Part shown: positions 2,486 to 45,729 of the stretch, one piece after another
How positions within the stretch are numbered: position 1 is the stretch's first letter
Layout of the letters: each line of letters begins with the position of its first letter
Sequence record: MZ726791.1
From: Escherichia phage vB_EcoM_ASO1A
Length of the DNA stretch: 64,000 bases
Reading direction: 5' to 3' (one strand)
Translations under genes and position numbers: made by a program
Notes under the pieces: generated by a model
Seen by the model: the letters and a program-made list of their open reading frames with translations, nothing else
Told to the model about the DNA's origin: nothing
Database searches by the model: none

Positions 2486-2520
2486 TTGACAATGTGTTTG
2501 ATACCCTTTAATATGTTCTA
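2486..2520 (+). promoter_or_regulatory. sigma70-like promoter (TTGACA - 17 nt - TAATAT) within inverted repeat GGGTAT...ATACCC
   Basis: Read directly; upstream of tRNA array. Confidence 0.55.
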
Positions 2521-2576: not shown

Positions 2577-2612
2577 TTGACAATCACTAAAAAATAATGT
2601 TAAAGTGGTTAC
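2577..2612 (+). promoter_or_regulatory. sigma70-like promoter (TTGACA ... TAAAGT) preceding first tRNA
   Basis: Read directly. Confidence 0.45.
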
Positions 2613-2632: not shown

Positions 2633-2709
2633 CTCTGTTTAGCTCAGCTTGGTAGAGCGTTCCGTTTGGGGCGGTAAGGCCGGAGGTTCAAGTCCTCCAA
2701 CAGAGACCA
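2633..2709 (+). tRNA. tRNA-Pro (anticodon TGG)
   Basis: Acceptor CTCTGTT/AACAGAG, D-arm GCTCAGCTTGGTAGAGC, T-arm GGAGG-TTCAAGT-CCTCC, CCA encoded. Confidence 0.7.
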
Positions 2710-2716
2710 AATTAAT

Positions 2717-2794
2717 GTTCCAGTAGACAAAATGGTAAAGTCACCACTCTTTCAAAGTGGATATCTGAGGGTTCAAATCCCTTCTGGAACGCCA
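2717..2794 (+). tRNA. tRNA-Glu (anticodon TTC)
   Basis: Acceptor GTTCCAG/CTGGAAC, anticodon stem CCACT/AGTGG loop CTTTCAA, T-arm GAGGG-TTCAAAT-CCCTT, CCA. Confidence 0.7.
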
Positions 2795-2884
2795 GTTTTG
2801 ACAGAAGACCAATTACAGCAAACTTAATCTACTCATCTGACACGAAATCGGACAAAGAAGATATTTGGTCTGGTCATTGAGAAT

Positions 2885-2961
2885 TGCGGGTATAGAGAAA
2901 GGGCGTCTCACATGTCTCATTAGCATGGTATCGGCAGGTTCGACTCCTGCACCCGCCTCCA
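2885..2961 (+). tRNA. tRNA-Met/fMet/Ile2 (anticodon CAT)
   Basis: Anticodon arm CATGT-CTCATTA-GCATG, T-arm GCAGG-TTCGACT-CCTGC, CCA; 1:72 pair mismatched. Confidence 0.6.
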
Positions 2962-3038
2962 ATTTTGCAGAAGACCGTATTCAGCAACAAAATACTTTTT
3001 GCGGATAAAAGAAAAAACACGGTCTGGCAATGTATTAA

Positions 3039-3115
3039 GGTTAGGAAGCACATAAGGTATGTGCGGTCGCCTGTTAAGCGAATGGCACAGGGTTCGAATC
3101 CCTGACTAACCGCCA
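3039..3115 (+). tRNA. tRNA-Asn (anticodon GTT)
   Basis: Acceptor GGTTAGG/ACTAACC, D-stem GCAC/GTGC, anticodon loop CTGTTAA, T-arm CAGGG-TTCGAAT-CCCTG, CCA. Confidence 0.7.
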
Positions 3116-3124
3116 AATTTAAAT

Positions 3125-3212
3125 GTGTCGTTATCCCGTAGATGGTAGCGGTGGGGACTGTAAATCCCTTGTCATTGAGACTCGGTAGGTTCGACTCCTA
3201 CACGGCACACCA
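3125..3212 (+). tRNA. tRNA-Tyr (anticodon GTA), type II with long variable arm
   Basis: Acceptor GTGTCGT/ACGGCAC, anticodon arm GGGGA-CTGTAAA-TCCCT, long variable arm, T-arm GTAGG-TTCGACT-CCTAC, CCA. Confidence 0.65.
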
Positions 3213-3217
3213 ATAAA

Positions 3218-3295
3218 GGTTATGTAGTTTAATTTGGTTAAAATACTCCCCTGTCACGGGAGATGATGAGGGTTCAAATCCCTTCGTAACCGCCA
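3218..3295 (+). tRNA. tRNA-Asp (anticodon GTC)
   Basis: Acceptor GGTTATG/CGTAACC, anticodon arm CTCCC-CTGTCAC-GGGAG, T-arm GAGGG-TTCAAAT-CCCTT, CCA. Confidence 0.65.
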
Positions 3296-3321
3296 ATTTT
3301 GAGAGGGCTATTTAGCCCCTC

Positions 3322-3354
3322 CCTTAAAGGGTTCTTACGAGTATCCTTTAAAGG
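3322..3354 (+). repeat. conserved hairpin element copy A (TTAAAGGG-TTCTTACGAG-TATCCTTTAAAGG)
   Basis: Imperfect palindrome with conserved loop; related copies near 4169, 6671 and 35415. Confidence 0.5.
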
Positions 3355-3356
3355 AG

Positions 3357-3429
3357 CAGAAGACCAAATACAGCAAGAACGTATGAAATTTCAAGCCAAT
3401 TTAATTTTGAAAATTTAAACTTGGTCTGG
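3357..3429 (+). repeat. inter-tRNA spacer unit CAGAAGACC ... GGTCTGG (copy 3 of 4)
   Basis: Same terminal motifs as units at 2802-2873, 2968-3027 and 3443-3574; ends are complementary (AGACC/GGTCT). Confidence 0.45.
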
Positions 3430-3495
3430 CTCAACAAATTTACAGAAGACCGTTTACAGCAAAACTTAAACAATCTATTTCTCCGGTAAAGAAAA

Positions 3496-3560
3496 GGCGA
3501 AGGTTCGATTCCTTCACTCGGCAGATGTCGAGTTGGTGTAATGGTAGCACTTAAGATGAT
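3496..3560 (+). ncRNA. tRNA-like fragments: T-arm hairpin (GAAGG-TTCGATT-CCTTC) + 7-bp acceptor-like hairpin (ACTCGGC/GTCGAGT) + D-arm-like GTGTAATGGTAGCAC; pseudo-tRNA or structured RNA
   Basis: Read directly; elements are in non-canonical order (3' half before 5' half), so no canonical cloverleaf. Confidence 0.3.
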
Positions 3561-3723
3561 AAACAACGGTCTGGTAATTATCTTTGTAGATAAGTTATTA
3601 AGCTTACCTGTGAGTATGCGACCACAAAGGGTGAAAGGGTAAATTCTAGATTTAAACCCAAAAAGGCACATCGCTACAGACCTTAAGCAAGTCTGGGTAG
3701 CTTATCTACAAAGATAATTTAAT

Positions 3724-3798
3724 GGAAGTGTAGCAGAATGGTGATGCGGCAGACTTTTAATCTGACAGGCGATGGGTTCGAATCCCTCCACTTCTACC
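3724..3798 (+). tRNA. tRNA-Lys (anticodon TTT)
   Basis: Acceptor GGAAGTG/CACTTCT, anticodon stem CAGA/TCTG loop CTTTTAA, T-loop TTCGAAT, CCA; T-stem has two weak pairs. Confidence 0.55.
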
Positions 3799-3804
3799 AA
3801 AAAT

Positions 3805-3881
3805 GGTTCAGTCGCAGATAAGGTAATGCAAGGGTTTCATAAGCCCTATGAATGTGGGTTCGATTCCCACCTGAACCTCCA
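3805..3881 (+). tRNA. tRNA-Met/Ile2/fMet (anticodon CAT), second CAT tRNA
   Basis: Acceptor GGTTCAG/CTGAACC, anticodon arm AGGGT-TTCATAA-GCCCT, T-arm GTGGG-TTCGATT-CCCAC, CCA. Confidence 0.65.
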
Positions 3882-3882
3882 A

Positions 3883-3958
3883 GCTGGTATAGTTAAGAAG
3901 GTTATAACACTCCCCTGATAAGGGAACATCGGTGGTTCGATTCCACCTACCAGTACCA
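3883..3958 (+). tRNA. tRNA-Ile (anticodon GAT)
   Basis: Acceptor GCTGGTA/TACCAGT, D-stem GTTA/TAAC, anticodon loop CTGATAA, T-arm GGTGG-TTCGATT-CCACC, CCA. Confidence 0.7.
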
Positions 3959-3973
3959 ATTTCAATAAAGTTG

Positions 3974-4002
3974 TTGACATTGAGATGTGACTACTTTATA
4001 GT
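3974..4002 (+). promoter_or_regulatory. strong sigma70-like promoter (TTGACA - 17 nt - TATAGT) inside tRNA array
   Basis: Read directly; followed by ~200 nt without tRNA or ORF. Confidence 0.6.
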
Positions 4003-4168
4003 AACCTTAGTTTTCGTTGCGTAGCGTCTATTTTGCAAATTTAAAATAAATGCAAACGACAATGTTTTTCTGGCAGTAGCTTGATAGGCTAAACACCAGT
4101 GAGGTCTTCCAATCCCTCATCAAAGAATTTGGCGTACTCGCCCACGGTATGATTAATAAGGTGGGCAT

Positions 4169-4199
4169 CTTTAAGGGCTTTCTAAGAGAGTCTTTAAAG
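4169..4199 (+). repeat. conserved hairpin element copy B (CTTTAAGGGCTTTCTAAGAGAGTCTTTAAAG)
   Basis: Shares AGGG-YTTTCTAAGAGAGTC core and palindromic TTAAAG flanks with copies A and C. Confidence 0.5.
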
Positions 4200-4206
4200 A
4201 TAATTA

Positions 4207-4288
4207 CGGGGCGTATCTCAGCGGTCTTCTAAACCGCCGTTAACCGAGTAAGTGGAGTATGCGGGTTCGAGTCCTGCCGCCTCGACCA
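4207..4288 (+). tRNA. atypical tRNA-like gene, anticodon TCT (Arg) with no canonical D-arm and an extended variable region
   Basis: Acceptor CGGGGCG/CGCCTCG, anticodon arm GCGGT-CTTCTAA-ACCGC, T-arm GCGGG-TTCGAGT-CCTGC, CCA; only 7 nt between acceptor and anticodon stem. Confidence 0.4.
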
Positions 4289-4431
4289 ATTTAGTTAGCA
4301 GATTACTTAGACGACCTAAGCGGGTCTTCCTGTAAGGAGGTGGTCTGTATCTCATGTTTTCCAGAACATGTAAATAATCTGAGAAGGGGCTTTACAGTGT
4401 TGCGAAAATACGGTAAGCTTCGAATTACAGT

Positions 4432-4514
4432 ATGGGACGATGTTAAGACTCTAAGGCATGAGCAACGGCCTCCAAAACCGTTTCAAAGGGGTTCAACTCC
4501 TCCGTCCCATGCCA
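4432..4514 (+). tRNA. tRNA-Trp (anticodon CCA), enlarged D region
   Basis: Acceptor ATGGGAC/GTCCCAT, anticodon stem ACGG/CCGT loop CTCCAAA, T-loop TTCAACT, CCA. Confidence 0.5.
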
Positions 4515-4527
4515 AAGTCTTATTAGG

Positions 4528-4615
4528 GGTAGGTAGCGGCTAATGGTAGCCAAACTGTATTGAAAACAGTTGCCACTGTAGAGATACGGTGAGGGTTCGA
4601 CTCCTTTACTTACCG
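4528..4615 (+). tRNA. tRNA-Ser (anticodon TGA), type II, 3' CCA not encoded
   Basis: Acceptor GGTAGGT/ACTTACC, 3-bp D-stem, anticodon arm ACTGT-ATTGAAA-ACAGT, long variable arm, T-loop TTCGACT. Confidence 0.55.
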
Positions 4616-4769
4616 CCTAATAAGATTTACACCGTCCATGCTTGCTCGCATTTTCGGTTTATCCCTCGTGTATTGTCGTACACTGATAAAGCACCTAGTA
4701 GGTGTCACGGAGAAGAGATAATATCAAGCTCTCCAAAGGTTCTAGTCACCGGATTAAACAAGACTATGC

Positions 4770-4795
4770 AAAGACCTATTTAGGTCTTTTTAGAG
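4770..4795 (+). terminator. rho-independent terminator-like hairpin (AGACCTA/TAGGTCT + T-run)
   Basis: Perfect 7-bp stem followed by TTTTT; ends a ~150 nt non-coding stretch after tRNA-Ser. Confidence 0.5.
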
Positions 4796-4871
4796 GGCTT
4801 CTAAGGTTATTAGTCGCTTGTTGTGGAACCTTGTTGCTCAGGTTCTTAGAAGTTCTCTAAAAAGATTTAAT

Positions 4872-4950
4872 GGGAGATTGACGGCAACTTGGTAGACCTA
4901 TCTCGCTTAGAACGAGATGCTTGAGGGTTCGAATCCCTTGTCTCCTACCA
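4872..4950 (+). tRNA. tRNA with Leu anticodon TAG, Leu-like D-arm but short variable arm
   Basis: Acceptor GGGAGAT/GTCTCCT, anticodon arm TCTCG-CTTAGAA-CGAGA, T-arm GAGGG-TTCGAAT-CCCTT, CCA; D-loop CAACTTGGTAGA. Confidence 0.5.
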
Positions 4951-4957
4951 AATTAAT

Positions 4958-5033
4958 GCAGGTGTAGCAAAATGGTTATGCGGCTGACTCTTAATCAGTA
5001 AGACGATGGGTTCAATTCCCTCCACCTGTACCA
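4958..5033 (+). tRNA. tRNA-Lys (anticodon CTT)
   Basis: Acceptor GCAGGTG/CACCTGT, anticodon stem GCTGA/TCAGT loop CTCTTAA, T-loop TTCAATT, CCA; paralogous to Lys(TTT). Confidence 0.6.
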
Positions 5034-5039
5034 GACATT

Positions 5040-5115
5040 GGGGATGTAGTTTACATGGTTAAAACATAAGTTTTGCAAACTTAAGTACAGGGTTCAATTC
5101 CATGCTTCTCCACCA
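5040..5115 (+). tRNA. tRNA-Ala (anticodon TGC)
   Basis: D-stem GTTT/AAAC, anticodon arm TAAGT-TTTGCAA-ACTTA, T-loop TTCAATT, CCA. Confidence 0.6.
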
Positions 5116-5121
5116 ATTAGT

Positions 5122-5196
5122 GCATCCATAGTTTAAACGGGAAAATTACAGTCTTCCAAACTGAGGTTGAGGGTTCGATTCCCTCTGGATGCTCCA
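5122..5196 (+). tRNA. tRNA-Gly (anticodon TCC)
   Basis: Acceptor GCATCCA/TGGATGC, anticodon stem CAGT/ACTG loop CTTCCAA, T-arm GAGGG-TTCGATT-CCCTC, CCA. Confidence 0.65.
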
Positions 5197-5203
5197 AATT
5201 AAT

Positions 5204-5279
5204 GCTCCTATCGTATAATTGGCTATTACGGTTGCCTTGTAAGCAACTTATCAGGGTTCGAATCCTTGTGGGAGCACCA
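5204..5279 (+). tRNA. tRNA-Thr (anticodon TGT)
   Basis: Acceptor GCTCCTA/TGGGAGC, anticodon arm GTTGC-CTTGTAA-GCAAC, T-arm CAGGG-TTCGAAT-CCTTG, CCA. Confidence 0.7.
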
Positions 5280-5282
5280 ATT

Positions 5283-5372
5283 CAGAGGTCAAGTGAAAGA
5301 CCGCTGGTGTCAACTGAAGACCGTAACAAATTCCACGGAGTTGAGTTAGCGGCACAACTTCAGACCTCTTTC
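5283..5372 (+). ncRNA. candidate structured spacer RNA (long-range stem CAGAGGTC ... GACCTCTG enclosing internal hairpins)
   Basis: Complementary 8-mers ~80 nt apart between tRNA-Thr and tRNA-Val; no ORF, no tRNA fold. Confidence 0.25.
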
Positions 5373-5374
5373 AT

Positions 5375-5449
5375 GCTCGCTTAGTTTATATGGTAAAACA
5401 TCACCCTTACAAGATGAAGAAAAAGGTTCAAGTCCTTTAGTGAGTACCA
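5375..5449 (+). tRNA. tRNA-Val (anticodon TAC)
   Basis: Acceptor GCTCGCT/AGTGAGT, D-stem GTTT/AAAC, anticodon loop CTTACAA, T-arm AAAGG-TTCAAGT-CCTTT, CCA. Confidence 0.65.
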
Positions 5450-5450
5450 T

Positions 5451-5528
5451 GTTCCAGTATCCCAATTGGCAGAGGATGCAAGCTCAAACCTTGTATTAGT
5501 GACGGTTCGAATCCGTCTTGGAACACCA
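5451..5528 (+). tRNA. tRNA with Leu anticodon CAA, short variable arm
   Basis: Acceptor GTTCCAG/TTGGAAC, D-loop CAATTGGCAGA, anticodon stem GCAAG/CTTGT loop CTCAAAC, T-arm GACGG-TTCGAAT-CCGTC, CCA. Confidence 0.5.
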
Positions 5529-5533
5529 ATTTT

Positions 5534-5609
5534 GCAGGATTAGTTCAAATGGATAGAGCAACAGTCTACGAAGCTGTTAATAGGGGTTCGAATCCCTTAT
5601 CCTGCGCCA
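5534..5609 (+). tRNA. tRNA-Arg (anticodon ACG)
   Basis: Acceptor GCAGGAT/ATCCTGC, D-arm GTTC-AAATGGATA-GAGC, anticodon arm ACAGT-CTACGAA-GCTGT, T-arm AGGGG-TTCGAAT-CCCTT, CCA. Confidence 0.7.
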
Positions 5610-5626
5610 GATAAAAAGGTGATACT

Positions 5627-5869
5627 ATGCAAACATTAACAGTAGTTGAACATGAAAACTGTGAGAATATTGAGTTTGTCAGGGTCATTGGTGTTGAACA
5701 CCACATTTTCTTAAAAGTAGGGTACTTATGTGACCCCGCTAGAGTAGAAAGATTTATACGTGATTGTTTTGGTGGTAGACAGCTAAAGAGTGTTATTTTT
5801 GAGACAGTTTTACCAGAAGGTTTAGAAACGAATAATAACATTTATCTCCTTACAAGGATTAGACGATGA
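5627..5869 (+). CDS. hypothetical small protein embedded in tRNA array
   Basis: 80 aa ORF; AAGGTGA SD 7 nt upstream of ATG; directly follows tRNA-Arg. Confidence 0.4.
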   Translation: MQTLTVVEHENCENIEFVRVIGVEHHIFLKVGYLCDPARVERFIRDCFGGRQLKSVIFETVLPEGLETNNNIYLLTRIRR

Positions 5870-6423
5870 GATATTTAAAATATGCTTCATGGATTTTCCT
5901 AGCTTTGCTAGAACCATTAGCAGCAACCTTAGCAGTTATCTTAGCACCTTTCGTAGTTCCATTTTACAGTGAGAAGAAAGGCCACTTACCTTTCGGATTT
6001 AGATGGATGGAGACATATGACAACCCAATTGATGGTGACGAAGGTCATATCGAACGATGGGCTAAGATTAGAAAGATTGGTAAGCTGGGTGTCTACATGC
6101 AGAGAGTCGGATGGCTCTGGAGAAACAAAGCTTATAACTTCTCTTACCATGTATTAGGAAGAGATGTAAAAGATGTTACTAAGTGGAAAGGTAATATCAA
6201 CGTAAGTTCTGACCCTGAAGATAATCAGACAGGTTATCTCCTAATGTGGAACAGTAATGCTTGGGGATTATTCGCTTTTATCCCATCAATTAAAGTCTTT
6301 GGTAAACAATTTTACTGGAGAATTTATATTGGGTGGAAGCTAAAAAGTGTTGTCCCAGAAGAAAGAGCATTCTCAAGGGAAAGAGTTATGTTGGCATTCT
6401 TTATTCATCCACTAAGAAAGTAA
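5866..6423 (+). CDS. hypothetical membrane protein (N-terminal hydrophobic segment, Trp-rich)
   Basis: 185 aa; ATG with AAGGA SD; start overlaps upstream ORF stop (ATGA). Confidence 0.55.
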   Translation: MRYLKYASWIFLALLEPLAATLAVILAPFVVPFYSEKKGHLPFGFRWMETYDNPIDGDEGHIERWAKIRKIGKLGVYMQRVGWLWRNKAYNFSYHVLGRDVKDVTKWKGNINVSSDPEDNQTGYLLMWNSNAWGLFAFIPSIKVFGKQFYWRIYIGWKLKSVVPEERAFSRERVMLAFFIHPLRK

Positions 6424-6431
6424 AGATTTAA

Positions 6432-6507
6432 AGGGGATTAGTTTACAAGGTTAAAACCTCGGTCTTTGAAATCGAAGAAGTTGGTTCAATTCCAACATCC
6501 CCCGCCA
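6432..6507 (+). tRNA. tRNA-Gln (anticodon TTG)
   Basis: D-stem GTTT/AAAC, anticodon arm TCGGT-CTTTGAA-ATCGA, T-arm GTTGG-TTCAATT-CCAAC, CCA; 1:72 mismatch. Confidence 0.6.
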
Positions 6508-6509
6508 AT

Positions 6510-6588
6510 GCTCCATTACTCCAATTGGCAGAGAGGCCAGACTTAAAATCTGTGTTATGTATCGGTTCGAATCCGATATGGAGTACCA
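6510..6588 (+). tRNA. tRNA with Leu anticodon TAA, short variable arm
   Basis: Acceptor GCTCCAT/ATGGAGT, D-loop AATTGGCAGA, anticodon stem CAGA/TCTG loop CTTAAAA, T-arm ATCGG-TTCGAAT-CCGAT, CCA. Confidence 0.5.
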
Positions 6589-6593
6589 AATTT

Positions 6594-6669
6594 AGCGGTA
6601 TAGCATAACTGGCAATGCAACAGTCTCTGAAGCTGTCCTATTAAGGTTCAAATCCTTATGCCGCTGCCA
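6594..6669 (+). tRNA. tRNA-Gln (anticodon CTG)
   Basis: Acceptor AGCGGTA/TGCCGCT, anticodon arm ACAGT-CTCTGAA-GCTGT, T-arm TAAGG-TTCAAAT-CCTTA, CCA. Confidence 0.65.
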
Positions 6670-6670
6670 C

Positions 6671-6701
6671 TTCTAAGGGTTCTTACGAGAGTCCTTAAAT
6701 G
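6671..6701 (+). repeat. conserved hairpin element copy C (TTCTAAGGGTTCTTACGAGAGTCCTTAAATG)
   Basis: Near-identical loop (GGGTTCTTACGAG) to copy A. Confidence 0.5.
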
Positions 6702-6776
6702 TGGCCTTATCATAAATGGTAATGACCCATGCTGTGAACATGGTCTATACGGGTTCAAATCCCGTAGGTCACCCCA
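6701..6776 (+). tRNA. tRNA-His (anticodon GTG)
   Basis: Acceptor GTGGCCT/AGGTCAC, D-stem TCAT/ATGA, anticodon arm CCATG-CTGTGAA-CATGG, T-arm ACGGG-TTCAAAT-CCCGT, CCA; no encoded G-1. Confidence 0.7.
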
Positions 6777-6781
6777 ATTTA

Positions 6782-6858
6782 TAGTCCAAGTAGCTTATAT
6801 GGTTAAAGCGCGTGTCTGAAAAACATGAGAAGAGGGTTCAAATCCCACTGGACTACCA
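6782..6858 (+). tRNA. tRNA-Phe (anticodon GAA), 3' CCA not fully encoded
   Basis: Acceptor TAGTCCA/TGGACTA, D-stem GCTT/AAGC, anticodon arm CGTGT-CTGAAAA-ACATG, T-loop TTCAAAT; odd 8-9 spacing. Confidence 0.55.
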
Positions 6859-6874
6859 ATTTCAAAGGTGCTTA

Positions 6875-7609
6875 ATGAAAGAGATGACAGAACAAGGTAA
6901 GGAGATTTTTAATCTCTTAAAAACCGGTAAAGGGTTTTCTAACCCACTTATTACTGGTGCAGCAGTTCTCGGTGGAACCGTAGCTGCCTCTACATCACTT
7001 GTAAGCTCTATTAGTTCTGTAACAGACCCTACAATGCAGGAGAAACTTGTTGCTGCTGGACTTACAACAGTCCTTCTAAACAGCTTTACAACAAGCCTTA
7101 CAAGCACTACAGCAACTACTAAGACCCTGACAGACTACGGTCAAAAGTCTATTGATGAGTTTTCATCACGTATGCAGGTAGCAAAGGGATATTCCAATGT
7201 TATGAGTGCAGCAGGAGAACAAGTTGGTTGTACACCGTTCAGTGGTATTATGGGTGTTGCTACAGAATATGGTCAAAAAGCTATTGATACAATTAACAGT
7301 ACACTAGAGAGTGTTAACGATGTATTAAGTGACTTACAAGACGCTATTGATGAGGGTCTTGATACTATTTCTGATTTAGCTAATCAGGCTGTTAGTAAGA
7401 TTAATGAAGGTATTTCAAAGATTACAGCTTATGCAGATGAAGTTGTGCAGATGATTGAAGAAGAAGCTGCCCTTATTGCAGAGTACCTTAAAACGAATAT
7501 CAATGGGTTCTTAGCAGGTATCTTACCAGACTGGTTTGACGATGCCTGTAAAACTGGTGTAATTGACACTATTGCAACACCAGAAATGAAGAACGCATTA
7601 CAGAAATAA
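6875..7609 (+). CDS. hypothetical protein (Ala/Ser/Thr-rich N-terminal half, acidic helical C-terminal half)
   Basis: Track ORF 6812-7609 trimmed to in-frame ATG (Met22) with AAAGGTG SD, because the first 45 nt overlap tRNA-Phe. Confidence 0.55.
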   Translation: MKEMTEQGKEIFNLLKTGKGFSNPLITGAAVLGGTVAASTSLVSSISSVTDPTMQEKLVAAGLTTVLLNSFTTSLTSTTATTKTLTDYGQKSIDEFSSRMQVAKGYSNVMSAAGEQVGCTPFSGIMGVATEYGQKAIDTINSTLESVNDVLSDLQDAIDEGLDTISDLANQAVSKINEGISKITAYADEVVQMIEEEAALIAEYLKTNINGFLAGILPDWFDDACKTGVIDTIATPEMKNALQK

Positions 7610-7611
7610 AT

Positions 7612-7704
7612 GGAAGATTAACCCTAAAAGGTAAGGGAGCAGTTTGCTAAACTGCCAGTAGCTGAGAAATCGGTGTACCAGTTCAAGTCTGGTATCTTCC
7701 TCCA
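7612..7704 (+). tRNA. tRNA-Ser (anticodon GCT), type II
   Basis: Acceptor GGAAGAT/ATCTTCC, anticodon arm GCAGT-TTGCTAA-ACTGC, long variable arm, T-arm ACCAG-TTCAAGT-CTGGT, CCA. Confidence 0.7.
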
Positions 7705-7708
7705 ATTT

Positions 7709-7784
7709 GAATCCGTGACAGAAATGGCTATGTGCCTGTCTGCAAAACAGGTTTATAAGGGTTCGAGTCCCTTCGGATTCTCCA
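7709..7784 (+). tRNA. tRNA-Cys (anticodon GCA)
   Basis: Acceptor GAATCCG/CGGATTC, anticodon arm CCTGT-CTGCAAA-ACAGG, T-arm AAGGG-TTCGAGT-CCCTT, CCA. Confidence 0.7.
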
Positions 7785-16954: not shown

Positions 16955-18307
16955 ATGTGGAATCCAATTGTTAATGTAGATATTACATTGAACACCGCAG
17001 GAACTACAAGAGAAGGTTTTGGTTTGCCACTATTCTTAGCTTCAACAGATAACTTTGAAGAAAGAGTGCGTGGTTATACTTCCTTAACTGAAGTTGCTGA
17101 AGATTTCGATGAGAATACTGCTGCATATAAGGCTGCTAAACAACTTTGGAGTCAGACTCCTAAAGTAACTCAGCTTTATATTGGTAGACGCGCTATGCAG
17201 TACACTGTATCAATTCCTGATGAGGTTACTGAGAGCACGGACTACTCAATTACTGTAGCTGTCGGTGGGGGAATGTCACAACCATTCCAGTACACCTCAC
17301 AAGGTGAAGATACTGCCGAGAATGTATTACAACAGTTTAAAACACAGATTGAAGCTGACCAATCAATTAAAGATAAAGTTTCAGTCAATGTTACTGGTAG
17401 CAACGGTTCTGCCACAATGGTCATCTCCAAAGCTGGTGACAATGATTTCGTGAAGGTAACCACTACAGCACAAACTGTGTCTATTGCAAGCACAACTGCT
17501 GATACAGCGTCAACTGCTCTGGCAGCTATTGAAGCTTATTCTACCGACTGGTATTTCATTGCAGCAGAAGACAGAACTCAACAGTTTGTTTTGGCAATGG
17601 CTTCTGAGATTCAGGCTCGTAAGAAAATCTTCTTCACAGCTAACTCTGATGTAGCAGCACTGCAAGGTACAGAATTAAATAGTGCAAATGATGTTCCAGC
17701 ACAGCTTGCTAAGAGTATGTATACTCGCACAGTTTGCTTGTGGCATCACACAGCGGCAGAAGATTATCCAGAGATGGCATATATTGCTTATGGCGCTCCA
17801 TACGATGCAGGGTCAATTGCTTGGGGTAATGCTCAGTTGACTGGTGTAGCTGCTTCTTTACAGCCAGCTAATAAGAGACCTCTGACAAGCATTCAGAAGT
17901 CAGCTTTAGATGTACGTCACTGTAACTTTATCGACCTTGATGGTGGTGTTCCAGTGGTTCGTAGAGGGATTACTTCTGGTGGGGAATGGATTGATATCGT
18001 CCGTGGTGTTGACTGGTTAGAATCAGACCTGAAAACTTCTCTGAGAGACTTGCTAATTAACCAGAAGGGTGGTAAGATTACTTATGATGATACTGGTATT
18101 ACCCGTATTCGTCAAGTCATTGAAACCTCTCTACAAAGAGCAGTCAACAGAAACTTCCTGTCATCTTACACAGTTAATGTTCCTAAAGCCTCTCAAGTTG
18201 CTTTGGCAGACAAGAAAGCTCGTATCCTGAAAGATGTTACCTTCGCAGGTATCTTAGCAGGGGCTATCTTGGATGTTGACTTGAAAGGTACAGTGGCTTA
18301 CGAATAA
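16955..18307 (+). CDS. tail sheath protein (putative)
   Basis: 450 aa, AAAGGGG SD; followed by a ~150 aa gene, chaperone-like genes and tape measure. Confidence 0.55.
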   Translation: MWNPIVNVDITLNTAGTTREGFGLPLFLASTDNFEERVRGYTSLTEVAEDFDENTAAYKAAKQLWSQTPKVTQLYIGRRAMQYTVSIPDEVTESTDYSITVAVGGGMSQPFQYTSQGEDTAENVLQQFKTQIEADQSIKDKVSVNVTGSNGSATMVISKAGDNDFVKVTTTAQTVSIASTTADTASTALAAIEAYSTDWYFIAAEDRTQQFVLAMASEIQARKKIFFTANSDVAALQGTELNSANDVPAQLAKSMYTRTVCLWHHTAAEDYPEMAYIAYGAPYDAGSIAWGNAQLTGVAASLQPANKRPLTSIQKSALDVRHCNFIDLDGGVPVVRRGITSGGEWIDIVRGVDWLESDLKTSLRDLLINQKGGKITYDDTGITRIRQVIETSLQRAVNRNFLSSYTVNVPKASQVALADKKARILKDVTFAGILAGAILDVDLKGTVAYE

Positions 18308-43751: not shown

Positions 43752-45729
43752 AGGTCGTAAATTGAAAGAGGCTGGTCAGTTTGTTGGTCATTGTGCATGT
43801 CCACGTTGTGGTTCATCAGATGCTGGTTCAATCTATCATCATGACGATGATTCTTATTCGATGACTTGCTTTAGTTGTAACAAAGGTTTCCCAGAGTGGG
43901 ATTTTGATAAAGGACAAATCGTGAGCACTTATTCTACTGGTTCAGACAATAAAAACCGTACTTTCCGTGGGATGGATTTAGACGATGTAAAAGACAACCT
44001 TGAAGCAATGGACTTAAAGGACAGGAAGATTCCTGCAAAAGTTCTTGAGCGTTTGGGTATCAAGGTTGACATTGATAGTGACGGTGAAATTGATGCGCAT
44101 TTCTACCCAACTTACAAACGCAATGAAGATGGCAAGCTAGAGCATGTTGGCTACCGTGTTCGTCACCGTTACCCAGAAGACCATCCAAAAGAGCACCTAC
44201 GCGGTAAGTTAAAAGACTTTTCTGGTGGTGTTGGAGATATTAAAGGTGAACTGGCAATGTTCGGTTCATGGATTGCTCCAGAAGGTGGTAACCGCCTATT
44301 CATCTGGGAAGGTGAGATGGAATGTGCGACAGCAATCTATATGACTTCTCTTGCGATTAAGGACAAGTCTCGTCGTAAGAATTACTGTCACGTATCTGTT
44401 CCATCAGGTGCAAACATCAAGTCTATCAAAGATAACTATCAGTACATTACATCATTTGATGAAATTTACTTGTGCTTTGATAACGATGAAGCAGGTGCTA
44501 AAGCCACTAAAGAGGCTGCTGGTATCCTACCTATTGAGAAGGTTCGTTTATTCCAGTATCCAGAAGGTGTAAAAGACCTTAATGAATGGTGGACAAAGTT
44601 CTATAAAGAGAAAGATACAGTTCTGGAAGGATTTAAGCAGCGTATCTACAATGCACCTCGTTACTGCCCTGCTGGTATCAAGAACTTTGCAGACGGTTTT
44701 GATGCAATGAAGAATCGTGGTCAGATTCCATTGATTCCTTTTCCAGAATCTTTCGGAGACTTGAACAGGCTAACTTACGGTGGTTATGGTTTAGGTGAGA
44801 TTACGACTATTGCAGCACCATCTTCAGTAGGTAAGTCAGCTTACACTCGTGAGATGATTTATTCAGCTTGGAAAGAAACTGATTATAATATCGGTGTAAT
44901 TCCTGTAGAAGATACCTATGAAGAGTTGATGGAAATGCTCTGTGCAATCCACCTGAGCAAACAGATTTCTGAGATTCCTTATGATGAACGGGATTGGGAT
45001 GAATTAAAGGGAGCACACGCAGAGCTTTCAAAAGGTCGTCGCATCCATATCGTTGACCATCAAGGGGCGATTGACCAAGATAACCTGCTGGAGTTTGTTG
45101 ACTATCTTGTTAACAGTTTAGACTGTAAGATTATTATTCTTGACCCTATTACATTGGCTCTGTCACGTTCTGATACGGATGAAGAGGAAGTCTTGTCTGA
45201 ACTATTGCGTCGTTGCAAACGCTACCAGTATGCACAGGTAAACGTTTGTCACGTTCGTAAGAGTGCAGGTGGTCAGAAAGCTAACTCTGAAGGTGGAGAT
45301 ATCTCTGAAGAGGATATTAAGGGTTCTGGTGCGTATTTCCAGATTTCCATGAACAACATTCTGTTAATGCGTAACAAGGTTGACCCAGACCCTGTTAAGA
45401 AAAACTTGACAAAAATCAAGTTAACTAAGTGTCGTCGTCATGGTAAGTCAACAGGTATTGCTGGTCATACTTGGTACAATCCAGACACAGGACGTCTTAT
45501 CAAAGCTTCTGGATGTGGTGTTGACATTGATGGTGCAGCAGAAAATATTCGTCAACAGTTTGGTATTGGTGAAGCTGAAGACCATTATGACGATTCCCTA
45601 CCACATTATGAGGATGAAGTATTTGACCGTGAAACTGGTGAAGTTTATACTGAAGAACAACGTCAAAGTTCAACAATTCCACCAGTCGTAAGTGAGGATG
45701 CAGATGACTGCCCATTCGAAACTGAGTGA
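43744..45729 (+). CDS. DNA primase-helicase (T7 gp4-like)
   Basis: N-terminal zinc ribbon CACPRCGSSD ... CFSC, Walker A in C-terminal half; track start GTG moved to ATG. Confidence 0.8.
   Translation: MSKGRKLKEAGQFVGHCACPRCGSSDAGSIYHHDDDSYSMTCFSCNKGFPEWDFDKGQIVSTYSTGSDNKNRTFRGMDLDDVKDNLEAMDLKDRKIPAKVLERLGIKVDIDSDGEIDAHFYPTYKRNEDGKLEHVGYRVRHRYPEDHPKEHLRGKLKDFSGGVGDIKGELAMFGSWIAPEGGNRLFIWEGEMECATAIYMTSLAIKDKSRRKNYCHVSVPSGANIKSIKDNYQYITSFDEIYLCFDNDEAGAKATKEAAGILPIEKVRLFQYPEGVKDLNEWWTKFYKEKDTVLEGFKQRIYNAPRYCPAGIKNFADGFDAMKNRGQIPLIPFPESFGDLNRLTYGGYGLGEITTIAAPSSVGKSAYTREMIYSAWKETDYNIGVIPVEDTYEELMEMLCAIHLSKQISEIPYDERDWDELKGAHAELSKGRRIHIVDHQGAIDQDNLLEFVDYLVNSLDCKIIILDPITLALSRSDTDEEEVLSELLRRCKRYQYAQVNVCHVRKSAGGQKANSEGGDISEEDIKGSGAYFQISMNNILLMRNKVDPDPVKKNLTKIKLTKCRRHGKSTGIAGHTWYNPDTGRLIKASGCGVDIDGAAENIRQQFGIGEAEDHYDDSLPHYEDEVFDRETGEVYTEEQRQSSTIPPVVSEDADDCPFETE

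Follow-up and report, generated by a model that had tools for sequence, protein, structure and literature searches.

Four repeated units in the tRNA cluster of Escherichia phage vB_EcoM_ASO1A (record MZ726791.1; the 64,000-nucleotide stretch that was analyzed is referred to here as the window) are probably genes for small, stable structured non-coding RNAs, predicted to be Y-RNA-like partners of the Ro60-like protein encoded ahead of them at 1052–2467. The feature is best filed as a system of the Ro60–Y RNA type with a distinct RNA scaffold. Ro60 and Y RNAs act in conserved RNA surveillance and are a target of lupus and Sjogren autoantibodies. Ro60 docks on Y RNAs at a bulged stem and a CGAA motif, and the roles of Ro60 and Y RNAs in bacteria and phages are only beginning to be worked out. 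The identification would name the partner RNAs merely guessed at in a 2024 preprint on a Felixounavirus Ro60-like anti-defence protein, and would mean that the large DUF2828/DUF7788 phage protein family (PHROG 850) is accompanied by its own widespread, modular small-RNA family.

The four units share a two-helix closure

Four repeated spacer units had been described in an earlier note made from the sequence alone, and reading of the sequence found them as claimed. Each opens with CAGAAGACC, continues after 3 nt with (T/A)(T/A)CAGCAA and ends in GGTCTGG; the coordinates given at that time were right to ~4 nt, the full structures reaching 3–4 nt beyond on either side (Table 1). The stretch that follows CAGAAGACC-NNN is, from unit 1 to unit 4, TACAGCAA, TTCAGCAA, TACAGCAA and TACAGCAA. 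Exact copies of CAGAAGACC number five in the window, four of them at 2802, 2968, 3357 and 3443, all on the + strand, and GGTCTGG likewise has five + strand copies, four of them at 2867, 3021, 3423 and 3568. Since by arithmetic a given 9-mer should turn up only ~0.5 times as an exact copy in 128 kb of two-stranded sequence, four ordered motif pairs within 780 nt are not a product of chance. The fifth CAGAAGACC, at 44174, was considered as a further unit and rejected; it has no CAGCAA and lies in coding-like sequence.

The proposal that the complementary termini close a stem-loop of ~50–70 nt (130 nt in unit 4) was borne out by minimum-free-energy (MFE) folds. Every unit was predicted to close through a 7-bp inner helix, AGACCNN/NNGGUCU, and an outer 4-bp helix, with an asymmetric loop between them that has AGA on the 5′ side and G on the 3′ side. 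The sequence of the outer helix is different in each unit (Table 1). In 12 distinct units from the window and its Felixounavirus relatives, chosen by sequence motifs alone, all cells of the two-helix closure were paired, compared with 20–46% when the partner strand was slid. The outer helix, which was no selection criterion, was 100% paired, with compensatory changes in three of its four pairs, including a G-C to A-U change between orthologs of unit 2. The outer helix and the 5′ AGA loop are Felixounavirus additions to the scaffold described below.

Inside the closure, unit 1 has a variable interior with one small hairpin, unit 3 an A/U hairpin, and unit 2 (fold z-score −1.9) the hairpin CUUUU-UGCGGAU-AAAAG at 2995–3012. 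The 7-nt loop UGCGGAU of unit 2 is also found, on a different stem, in a unit of Mycobacterium phage LilDestine (L082 3946–4000; UGUU-UGCGGAU-AACA), and related loops, AUUGGAA and AGCGGAA, occur in other short units.

Table 1. Predicted features of the RNA units and of the neighboring protein gene in the window.
Feature	Position	Strand	Description or basis
Ro60-like gene, 471 aa	1052–2467	+	Pfam DUF2828 + DUF7788; PHROG 850 'RNA-binding protein'
Promoter-like site	2486–2514	+	second site; consensus scan only
Promoter-like site TTGACA-18-TAAAGT	2577–2606	+	ahead of tRNA/small-RNA cluster; consensus scan only
Unit 1	2799–2876	+	tRNA-Glu/tRNA-Met spacer; predicted short RNA; outer helix TGAC/GTCA
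Unit 1 inner helix AGACCAA/TTGGTCT	2806–2812 with 2865–2871		box TTACAGCAA at 2813–2821
Unit 2	2965–3030	+	tRNA-Met/tRNA-Asn spacer; predicted short RNA; outer helix TTGC/GCAA
Unit 2 inner helix AGACCGT/ACGGTCT	2972–2978 with 3019–3025		box ATTCAGCAA at 2979–2987
Unit 3	3354–3432	+	predicted short RNA after tRNA-Asp; outer helix GAGC/GCTC
Unit 3 inner helix AGACCAA/TTGGTCT	3361–3367 with 3421–3427		box ATACAGCAA at 3368–3376
Unit 4	3440–3577	+	predicted long RNA on the same scaffold; outer helix TTAC/GTAA
Unit 4 inner helix AGACCGT/ACGGTCT	3447–3453 with 3566–3572		box TTACAGCAA at 3454–3462
Unit 4 anticodon-stem-like 5-bp helix CUUAA/UUAAG	3465–3469 with 3551–3555	+	fold
Unit 4 V hairpin	3478–3494	+	fold, descriptor scan
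Unit 4 T arm GAAGG-TTCGATT-CCTTC	3499–3515	+	fold, descriptor scan; canonical
Unit 4 closed acceptor-like hairpin	3516–3533	+	7-bp stem, 4-nt loop
Unit 4 D arm with GG	~3535–3551	+	fold, descriptor scan

The gene ahead of the units encodes a predicted Ro60 fold

The product of 1052–2467 was modeled with AlphaFold2 from 33 homologs (predicted local distance difference test score, pLDDT, 86), and in a Foldseek search of the PDB the best twelve matches of the model were all Ro60 proteins. The model aligned over its full length to Ro60, as a HEAT-repeat ring followed by a C-terminal vWA domain with a MIDAS motif, of which the residues DxSxS, T and D are invariant. The protein is thus predicted to have a full-length Ro60 fold with an intact MIDAS. 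Its identity to the solved Ro60 structures is 11–16%, and a sequence search of the PDB returned nothing relevant. Among the best matches listed in the protein searches all were from phages, and the best matches of the model in BFVD included Pithovirus, Mimiviridae, Cafeteria roenbergensis virus and Marseillevirus proteins named DUF2828/DUF7788; a tardigrade-genome preprint has termed DUF2828 proteins 'mimiviral-like'.

An ortholog, gp130 of the Felixounavirus Bas63, was reported in the 2024 preprint to resemble Ro60 and to counter the Ppl defence system (PMC11482910). The same preprint offered the guess that 'some tRNA genes are possibly Y RNAs', none of which was named (PMC11482910).

The scaffold recurs beside the protein gene in other phages

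Eighty IMG/VR loci (823 kb) were selected by the protein alone (40–99% identity). The ends of their short units aligned without gaps and defined a common scaffold, in which a 7-bp terminal stem, its second pair invariably G-C, is followed by one unpaired G and encloses the single-stranded box UUACAGCAA, 3 nt inside the stem, and a variable interior. The 5′ end reads A/U and G, then five stem positions of variable sequence, a further three bases that are usually UUA, and CAGCAA; toward the 3′ end the variable interior gives way to an A-rich part, the complementary stem strand and the invariant unpaired G. Six of the seven pairs of the terminal stem covary across phages. The repeat is a functional RNA scaffold; in other phages the stem sequence varies from unit to unit and the pairing is kept. 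The structure was conserved with compensatory changes in the relatives and distant phages compared. The scaffold RNA family is not in Rfam, and no description of these RNAs was found in the literature searched.

A covariance model (R2) was trained on 30 entire units of comparable length, taken from phages whose protein is at most 48% identical, no Felixounavirus sequence being included, and was run against the entire 64 kb on both strands with filters off. Its top four matches were the four units, led by unit 2 (2970–3028, 31.5 bits, E 2.6e-6) and followed by unit 1 (2804–2874, 24.5 bits, E 2.5e-4), unit 3 (3359–3430, 19.4 bits, E 0.007) and unit 4 (16 bits), the E-values referring to the whole window; the fifth match scored 12.4 bits. 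The model R2 replaced an earlier one with the interiors excised (R1), whose top window matches were noise; on real sequence R1 broke down through its penalty on long loop insertions. A MAFFT alignment of units of widely mixed lengths misaligned the 3′ stems and was not used.

The units were strongly linked to the protein gene. Across the 80 loci, 93 of 93 R2 matches (E ≤ 0.1) were on the strand of the gene, almost all at most 1.6 kb away. A census by sequence pattern counted 183 units on the gene strand, against 52 on the opposite one and 55 after shuffling of the sequence, and placed units near the gene in 66 of the 80 loci. The 15-mer GGTTCCTTACAGCAA was found at 102 IMG/VR places; where a DUF2828 gene lay within the fetched stretch (46 places), it was always on the same strand (46/46), with a median separation of 99 nt. 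The gene has flanking units also in Listeria phage A511, LilDestine and Klebsiella phage FBKp34, and weakly in Campylobacter phage CPX; in LilDestine it is annotated 'Ro-like RNA binding protein'.

Many loci contain units and no tRNA genes, and because of this and of the invariable strand of the 93 matches the units can be said to follow the protein gene, not the tRNAs. The occurrence in inter-tRNA spacers that had been described at the outset holds for the window, but it is not a property of the family. These results bear on the possibility that the units serve the tRNA operon as processing or spacer hairpins (RNase E, RNase III, RNase P guides, insulators) with no function of their own, which is quite unlikely. 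Such a role would agree with the position of the window units between tRNAs, and the Felixounavirus-specific outer helix could be a processing signal. However, the scaffold is present in the tRNA-less loci L015, L016 and L020–L025 and in LilDestine, which has no annotated tRNA within the 6.4-kb fetched stretch; most spacers of the window's own 25-tRNA cluster had no scaffold when scanned with R2; and an invariant 9-nt single-stranded box across phages of different bacterial phyla is unexpected for a host-RNase site.

Proximity to the gene also raises the alternative that the units are cis elements of the Ro-like gene's mRNA, such as autoregulatory sites or stabilising hairpins of the untranslated regions, and not trans-acting RNAs. 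In many distant loci the first unit, on the gene's strand, begins 25–35 nt past the stop codon or ends 15–100 nt ahead of the start codon. In the window, by contrast, unit 1 is set apart from the gene by two promoter-like sites and two tRNAs, and six tRNAs are interspersed with the units. Arrays of up to seven tandem units (L052), elaborate modules such as a tRNA-like domain, some contigs that have units and no such gene near, and the free, abundant 60-nt form of look-alike RNAs in amoebae (PMC7919456) also argue against cis elements, which we regard as unlikely.

The earlier note had suggested a duplicating or mobile spacer cassette, and that suggestion was not upheld, the four units being syntenic in every Felixounavirus locus that was compared. 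Spread of a miniature transposable element or a homing-endonuclease-associated repeat through tRNA spacers would account for the inverted complementarity of the termini, for the HNH endonuclease genes inserted in the region in some relatives, and for interiors that differ between orthologous units of close relatives. It is nevertheless very improbable. The units were fixed in number (four) and order in nine of nine Felixounavirus loci, no other copies exist in the 64-kb window, and the strand bias relative to one gene is absolute. In addition, adjacent units of other phages differ in their 'terminal repeats' yet stay complementary, which points to selection at the RNA level and not to transposition.

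The units as RNA partners of the neighboring protein would be modular. Interiors are different or swapped between orthologous units of close relatives while the scaffold is retained, as fits a modular adaptor. The locus L052 contains an array of seven tandem units. A third module was observed within the scaffold at L013 4274–4373, L014 3131–3235, L019 147–283, L027 1263–1376 and L053 4732–4831, in which the interior end GAACCUUUCUGGAGGGGAAAGCAAAAACUCGCC is conserved across the five distant loci. With this element the cargo of the scaffold is of at least three kinds: a small hairpin, a tRNA-like domain and the GAACCUUUCUGGAGGGGAAAGCAAAAACUCGCC element.

Two further sets of units were seen in other company. 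Good units (38.9 and 27.1 bits) were found at L115 8855–9271 and L155 1982–2398, with a fused eukaryote-type topoisomerase II and a DUF3431 protein as neighbors; the contig may come from a giant virus of eukaryotes, which would take the RNA family beyond phages. At L111 (3948–4239, − strand), L183, L124 and L166, pairs of units (~60 + ~146 nt) were present in a fetched stretch without a Ro-like gene, and the closest large same-strand open reading frame (ORF) is that of an ATP-dependent DNA/RNA ligase.

Unit 4 contains a permuted tRNA-like domain

Unit 4 had been regarded as an expanded unit containing tRNA-like fragments. It is an expanded version with tRNA-like sequence, but in place of fragments it has a single coherent, circularly permuted tRNA-like domain that recurs in distant phages. 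The domain is a tRNA opened at the anticodon loop with the acceptor end closed, the arrangement of YrlA (Table 1). Rfam gave a partial tRNA match inside the unit, at 3466–3516.

A descriptor scan located the permuted module beside DUF2828 genes in at least 12 distant loci, each time within the same closure. RNAalifold, applied to an independent MAFFT alignment of 16 units from distant phages, predicted the closing stem, T arm, acceptor hairpin and D arm. Compensatory changes were present in 19 of the 21 pairs of the module in these 16 homologous units, and 97% of cells were paired, compared with 66% in shuffled and 39–48% in slid alignments. In L008 the acceptor-like stem is entirely replaced (ACCCTTC/GAAGGGT versus ACTCGGC/GTCGAGT), with retention of pairing.

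These findings make it extremely improbable that unit 4 is the wreck of two adjacent tRNA genes (a 3′ half and a 5′ half) and that the ORF antisense to it, 3348–3671, is a real gene. The T arm and D arm are indeed tRNA-like, the 107-aa ORF matches PHROG 14433 (E 4e-57), and GenBank entries have a 'hypothetical protein' or an odd 129-nt 'tRNA-Thr' at this place. Against a wreck, the order of T arm, closed hairpin (7 bp, 4-nt loop) and D arm recurs in distant phages with a hairpin of different sequence that is still paired. Against a gene, the ORF is shorter in L004 (76 aa) and L008 (34 aa), a 1-nt indel lies inside it between close relatives, and it has no Pfam match.

Two antisense ORFs lie on the units, 3348–3671 (− strand, 107 aa, PHROG 14433, E 4e-57) and 2813–2962 (− strand, PHROG 36255). 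As conserved genes both were rejected, not being retained in relatives, and PHROGs 14433 and 36255 are probably over-called ORFs on RNA genes. The 129-nt 'tRNA-Thr-GGT' of GenBank record MZ726792 (27251–27379, equivalent to 3395–3523 of the window) stretches from within unit 3 as far as unit 4's T arm; tRNAscan-SE was very probably misled into this call by the tRNA-like domain. The annotation is corrected accordingly: the 129-nt 'tRNA-Thr' and the antisense 'hypothetical proteins' were called over predicted RNAs.

Relation to YrlA-type Y RNAs

In bacteria and some phages, Y RNAs are encoded next to the Ro60 ortholog and on its strand, one of them a mimic of tRNA (PMC4201824), and the Ro60 of Thermus phage phiLo binds two adjacent Y-like RNAs, Yrl1 and Yrl2 (PMC12135203). 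The units resemble YrlA RNAs (RF02553) as predicted small RNAs within a few kb, and on the same strand, of a gene for a ring-shaped Ro60-fold protein with vWA/MIDAS; several different RNAs occur at one locus, their 5′ and 3′ ends are paired, and a conserved single-stranded motif lies on the 5′ side just inside the stem. Unit 4 alone has in addition the tRNA-like domain in the same permuted order of V, T, closed acceptor stem and D, which units 1–3 do not have. The units differ from YrlA in having the phage box UUACAGCAA instead of GNCGAA(N)G or CGAA, in a DUF2828/DUF7788 partner instead of TROVE, and, in the window, in being embedded in a tRNA operon. Mimicry of the metazoan Ro-binding GGUCCGA by the GGUCUGG strand, in reversed orientation, was considered and rejected as unsupported, since the consensus of the whole family conserves only G...C-U-G.

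Stable small RNAs that are not tRNAs are also processed from the tRNA operon of phage T4, as species 1 and 2 RNAs. Co-transcription with phage tRNAs and processing out of the transcript would be common to these and the units. To our knowledge, no Ro-like partner of the T4 species is known.

Several observations count against the identification of the units as Y-RNA-like partners of the Ro60-like protein. Expression, RNA ends and protein binding of the units are predictions from sequence only. The protein had no sequence match to Pfam TROVE (PF05731), DUF2828 and DUF7788 being the only matches at E ≤ 0.1. The full Rfam YrlA model matched relatives of unit 4 at L069, L011, L073, L055 and L085 with 37.6–43.5 bits (E 1e-4 to 2.5e-6), below its gathering score of 69 bits, and in the window, unit 4 included, there was no YrlA or Y_RNA match in Rfam even at E ≤ 10. 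The GNCGAA(N0-1)G or CGAA of bacterial Y RNAs is absent at the site of the box, which reads (U/A)(U/A)(A/U)CAGCAA. The percentage of paired positions in the terminal stem is circular, because most units came from a search that demanded pairing; independent evidence is provided by the outer helix, by RNAalifold and by the bias in strand and position. Finally, about 20 loci have good units and no Ro-like gene in the fetched stretch. The linkage is therefore strong and not absolute, and since most of these contigs are partial the gene could lie elsewhere.

Resemblance to dictyostelid Class I RNAs

Apart from tRNA and YrlA, the only Rfam family matched by the units was RF01414, the Dictyostelium Class I RNA. 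In the window the model matched unit 2 over its full length (2973–3026, 24 bits, E 0.067 in 951 nt) and unit 1 at 17.5 bits. Six of the seven tandem units of L052 were matched over the full model length at 18–30 bits (E down to 0.0025 in 891 nt), the best phage unit reaching 29.6 bits, and one FBKp34 unit was matched as well. The phage units, at 17–30 bits, did not reach the gathering threshold of 41.5 bits. Every RF01414 match at E ≤ 1 in the ~104 kb searched coincided with a unit, and the model was built from Dictyostelium only.

Class I RNAs have been described as free, abundant RNAs of ~60 nt, with a 6-bp terminal stem that shows many compensatory changes, a variable interior and clustered genes; an invariant 5′ G is paired to the C of CUGU, the RNAs start with AAG, and an 11-nt motif, CCUUACAGCAA, is conserved (PMC7919456). 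They were described as unique to Dictyostelia and as present in no other organism; judging by the text of that paper, phages were not among the genomes compared (PMC7919456). The Rfam consensus of RF01414 is GaUcuC-CUUACAGCAA-(A-rich)-GagAuC-UG.

The likeness extends through most of the scaffold. Units 1–3 measure 66–79 nt with the outer helix and 54–68 nt from end to end of the inner stem, compared with ~42–65 nt for Class I. Both have a terminal stem (7 bp in phages, 6 bp in amoebae) whose sequence is free to vary apart from the invariant 5′ G, a loop rich in A on its 3′ part, a variable interior and genes in clusters. The box CUUACAGCAA stands right after the 5′ stem strand and is identical in many phage units. 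In the window its versions are UUACAGCAA, AUUCAGCAA or AUACAGCAA; the CAGCAA part never varies, while units 1 and 4, like most distant phage units, have UUACAGCAA exactly. This box corresponds to the Class I motif CCUUACAGCAA beside the 5′ stem strand, and real Dictyostelium sequences have the same box. The termini correspond as well, reading AAG...CUGG in the window units and AAG...CUGU in many distant ones. Amoebal sequences from the PMC7919456 supplement, among them DdR-21, GTTGACCTTACAGCAA...GTCAACTG, could be aligned to the phage units, CAGCAA and the 3′ G being invariant throughout; for this alignment AA and T were appended to the amoebal ends, following PMC7919456 on the termini.

There are also differences. 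In phage units the spacing from stem to UUACAGCAA is one nucleotide shorter. In amoebae the genes are preceded by a promoter of their own with a Dictyostelium upstream sequence element (DUSE) ~60 nt upstream, whereas the phage units are in a bacterial-type tRNA operon. The amoebal RNAs are cytoplasmic and eukaryotic, their only known direct binder is the RNA recognition motif protein Rnp1A/CIBP, and no link to a Ro-like protein has been reported for them.

The resemblance may reflect common descent, transfer or convergence. A tentative proposal, to which we give less than even weight, is that the phage and dictyostelid Class I RNAs form one family, in which the stem and the CUUACAGCAA box would dock DUF2828/DUF7788 Ro60-like proteins. 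Members of DUF2828/DUF7788 occur in phages as well as in giant viruses of protists, so that a transfer of the system between viruses and amoebae is conceivable. If the proposal is true, Class I RNAs would have the role of a Y RNA and their missing partner would be a DUF2828-type protein. A candidate is DDB_G0281243, a protein with no assigned function and one of four proteins pulled down with DdR-21 (preprint 10.1101/2020.04.05.026054). The link would give a concrete test of the binders of Class I RNAs, which are abundant developmental RNAs of unexplained mechanism.

Genomic setting and proposed mechanism

ARAGORN predicted 25 tRNA genes in the window, all on the + strand and spanning 2633–7784, of which the first nine form the neighborhood of all four units. 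Escherichia phage vB_EcoM_ASO1B, a Felixounavirus, is 100% identical over a 2-kb stretch around the units, and this stretch of the window is 80–99% identical to those of more than 300 relatives infecting Escherichia, Salmonella, Klebsiella, Shigella and other hosts. Downstream of the promoter-like site nearest the cluster (Table 1), the next promoter-like site is at 3974–4002, and a consensus scan found no terminator-like site on the + strand between the two. This span fits a single transcript from tRNA-Pro through tRNA-Ile that includes the four units.

A mechanism can be outlined in which the units would be co-transcribed with the tRNAs from the promoter-like sites at 2486–2606 and freed as RNase P and the 3′ tRNA-processing enzymes excise the flanking tRNAs. 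The ring-shaped Ro60-like protein would dock on the stem and CAGCAA box, in the manner of Ro60 on the bulged stem and CGAA of its ligands. The variable module, tRNA-like in unit 4 and a small hairpin in units 1–3, may recruit or mimic other factors, candidates for which are tRNA-recognising enzymes, an exoribonuclease such as PNPase, and a host defence nuclease. The resulting RNA–protein particles might serve RNA surveillance or anti-defence during infection, a role that fits the countering of Ppl by Bas63 gp130.

Other structured elements of the cluster

Directly after unit 4, a 149-nt hairpin at 3575–3723 (+ strand) has a stem of ~24 bp and a branched top, with an MFE of −48.3 kcal/mol (z −7.2). 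It is kept across Felixounaviruses, with a compensatory change from GTAG/CTAC to GCAG/CTGC in the divergent L008. No Rfam family matched the hairpin, which may be an additional structured RNA of the cluster. In the spacer 5′ of unit 3 (3296–3353, + strand) two hairpins are predicted, one with the loop TTCTTACGAG. This 10-mer occurs exactly again at 6680 on the + strand, in a tRNA spacer (region 6670–6700), and at 17616 on the − strand, and a hairpin similar to the one with this loop is found in L005.

A PADLOC scan gave no match. The 570-nt gap between tRNA-Ile and tRNA-Ser may hold further non-standard RNAs: Rfam tRNA matched 4207–4285 (+ strand, 31.7 bits), which was not among the ARAGORN calls; 4434–4508 (+ strand) had a weak tRNA-Sec-like Rfam match; and weak, sub-threshold matches to tmRNA and permuted tmRNA (E 0.003–0.007) fell at 3900–4205 (+ strand). 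Protein genes amid the tRNA cluster at 599–970, 5866–6423 and 6812–7609, all on the + strand, belong to DUF5681, DUF7338 and DUF7217, families without an assigned function.

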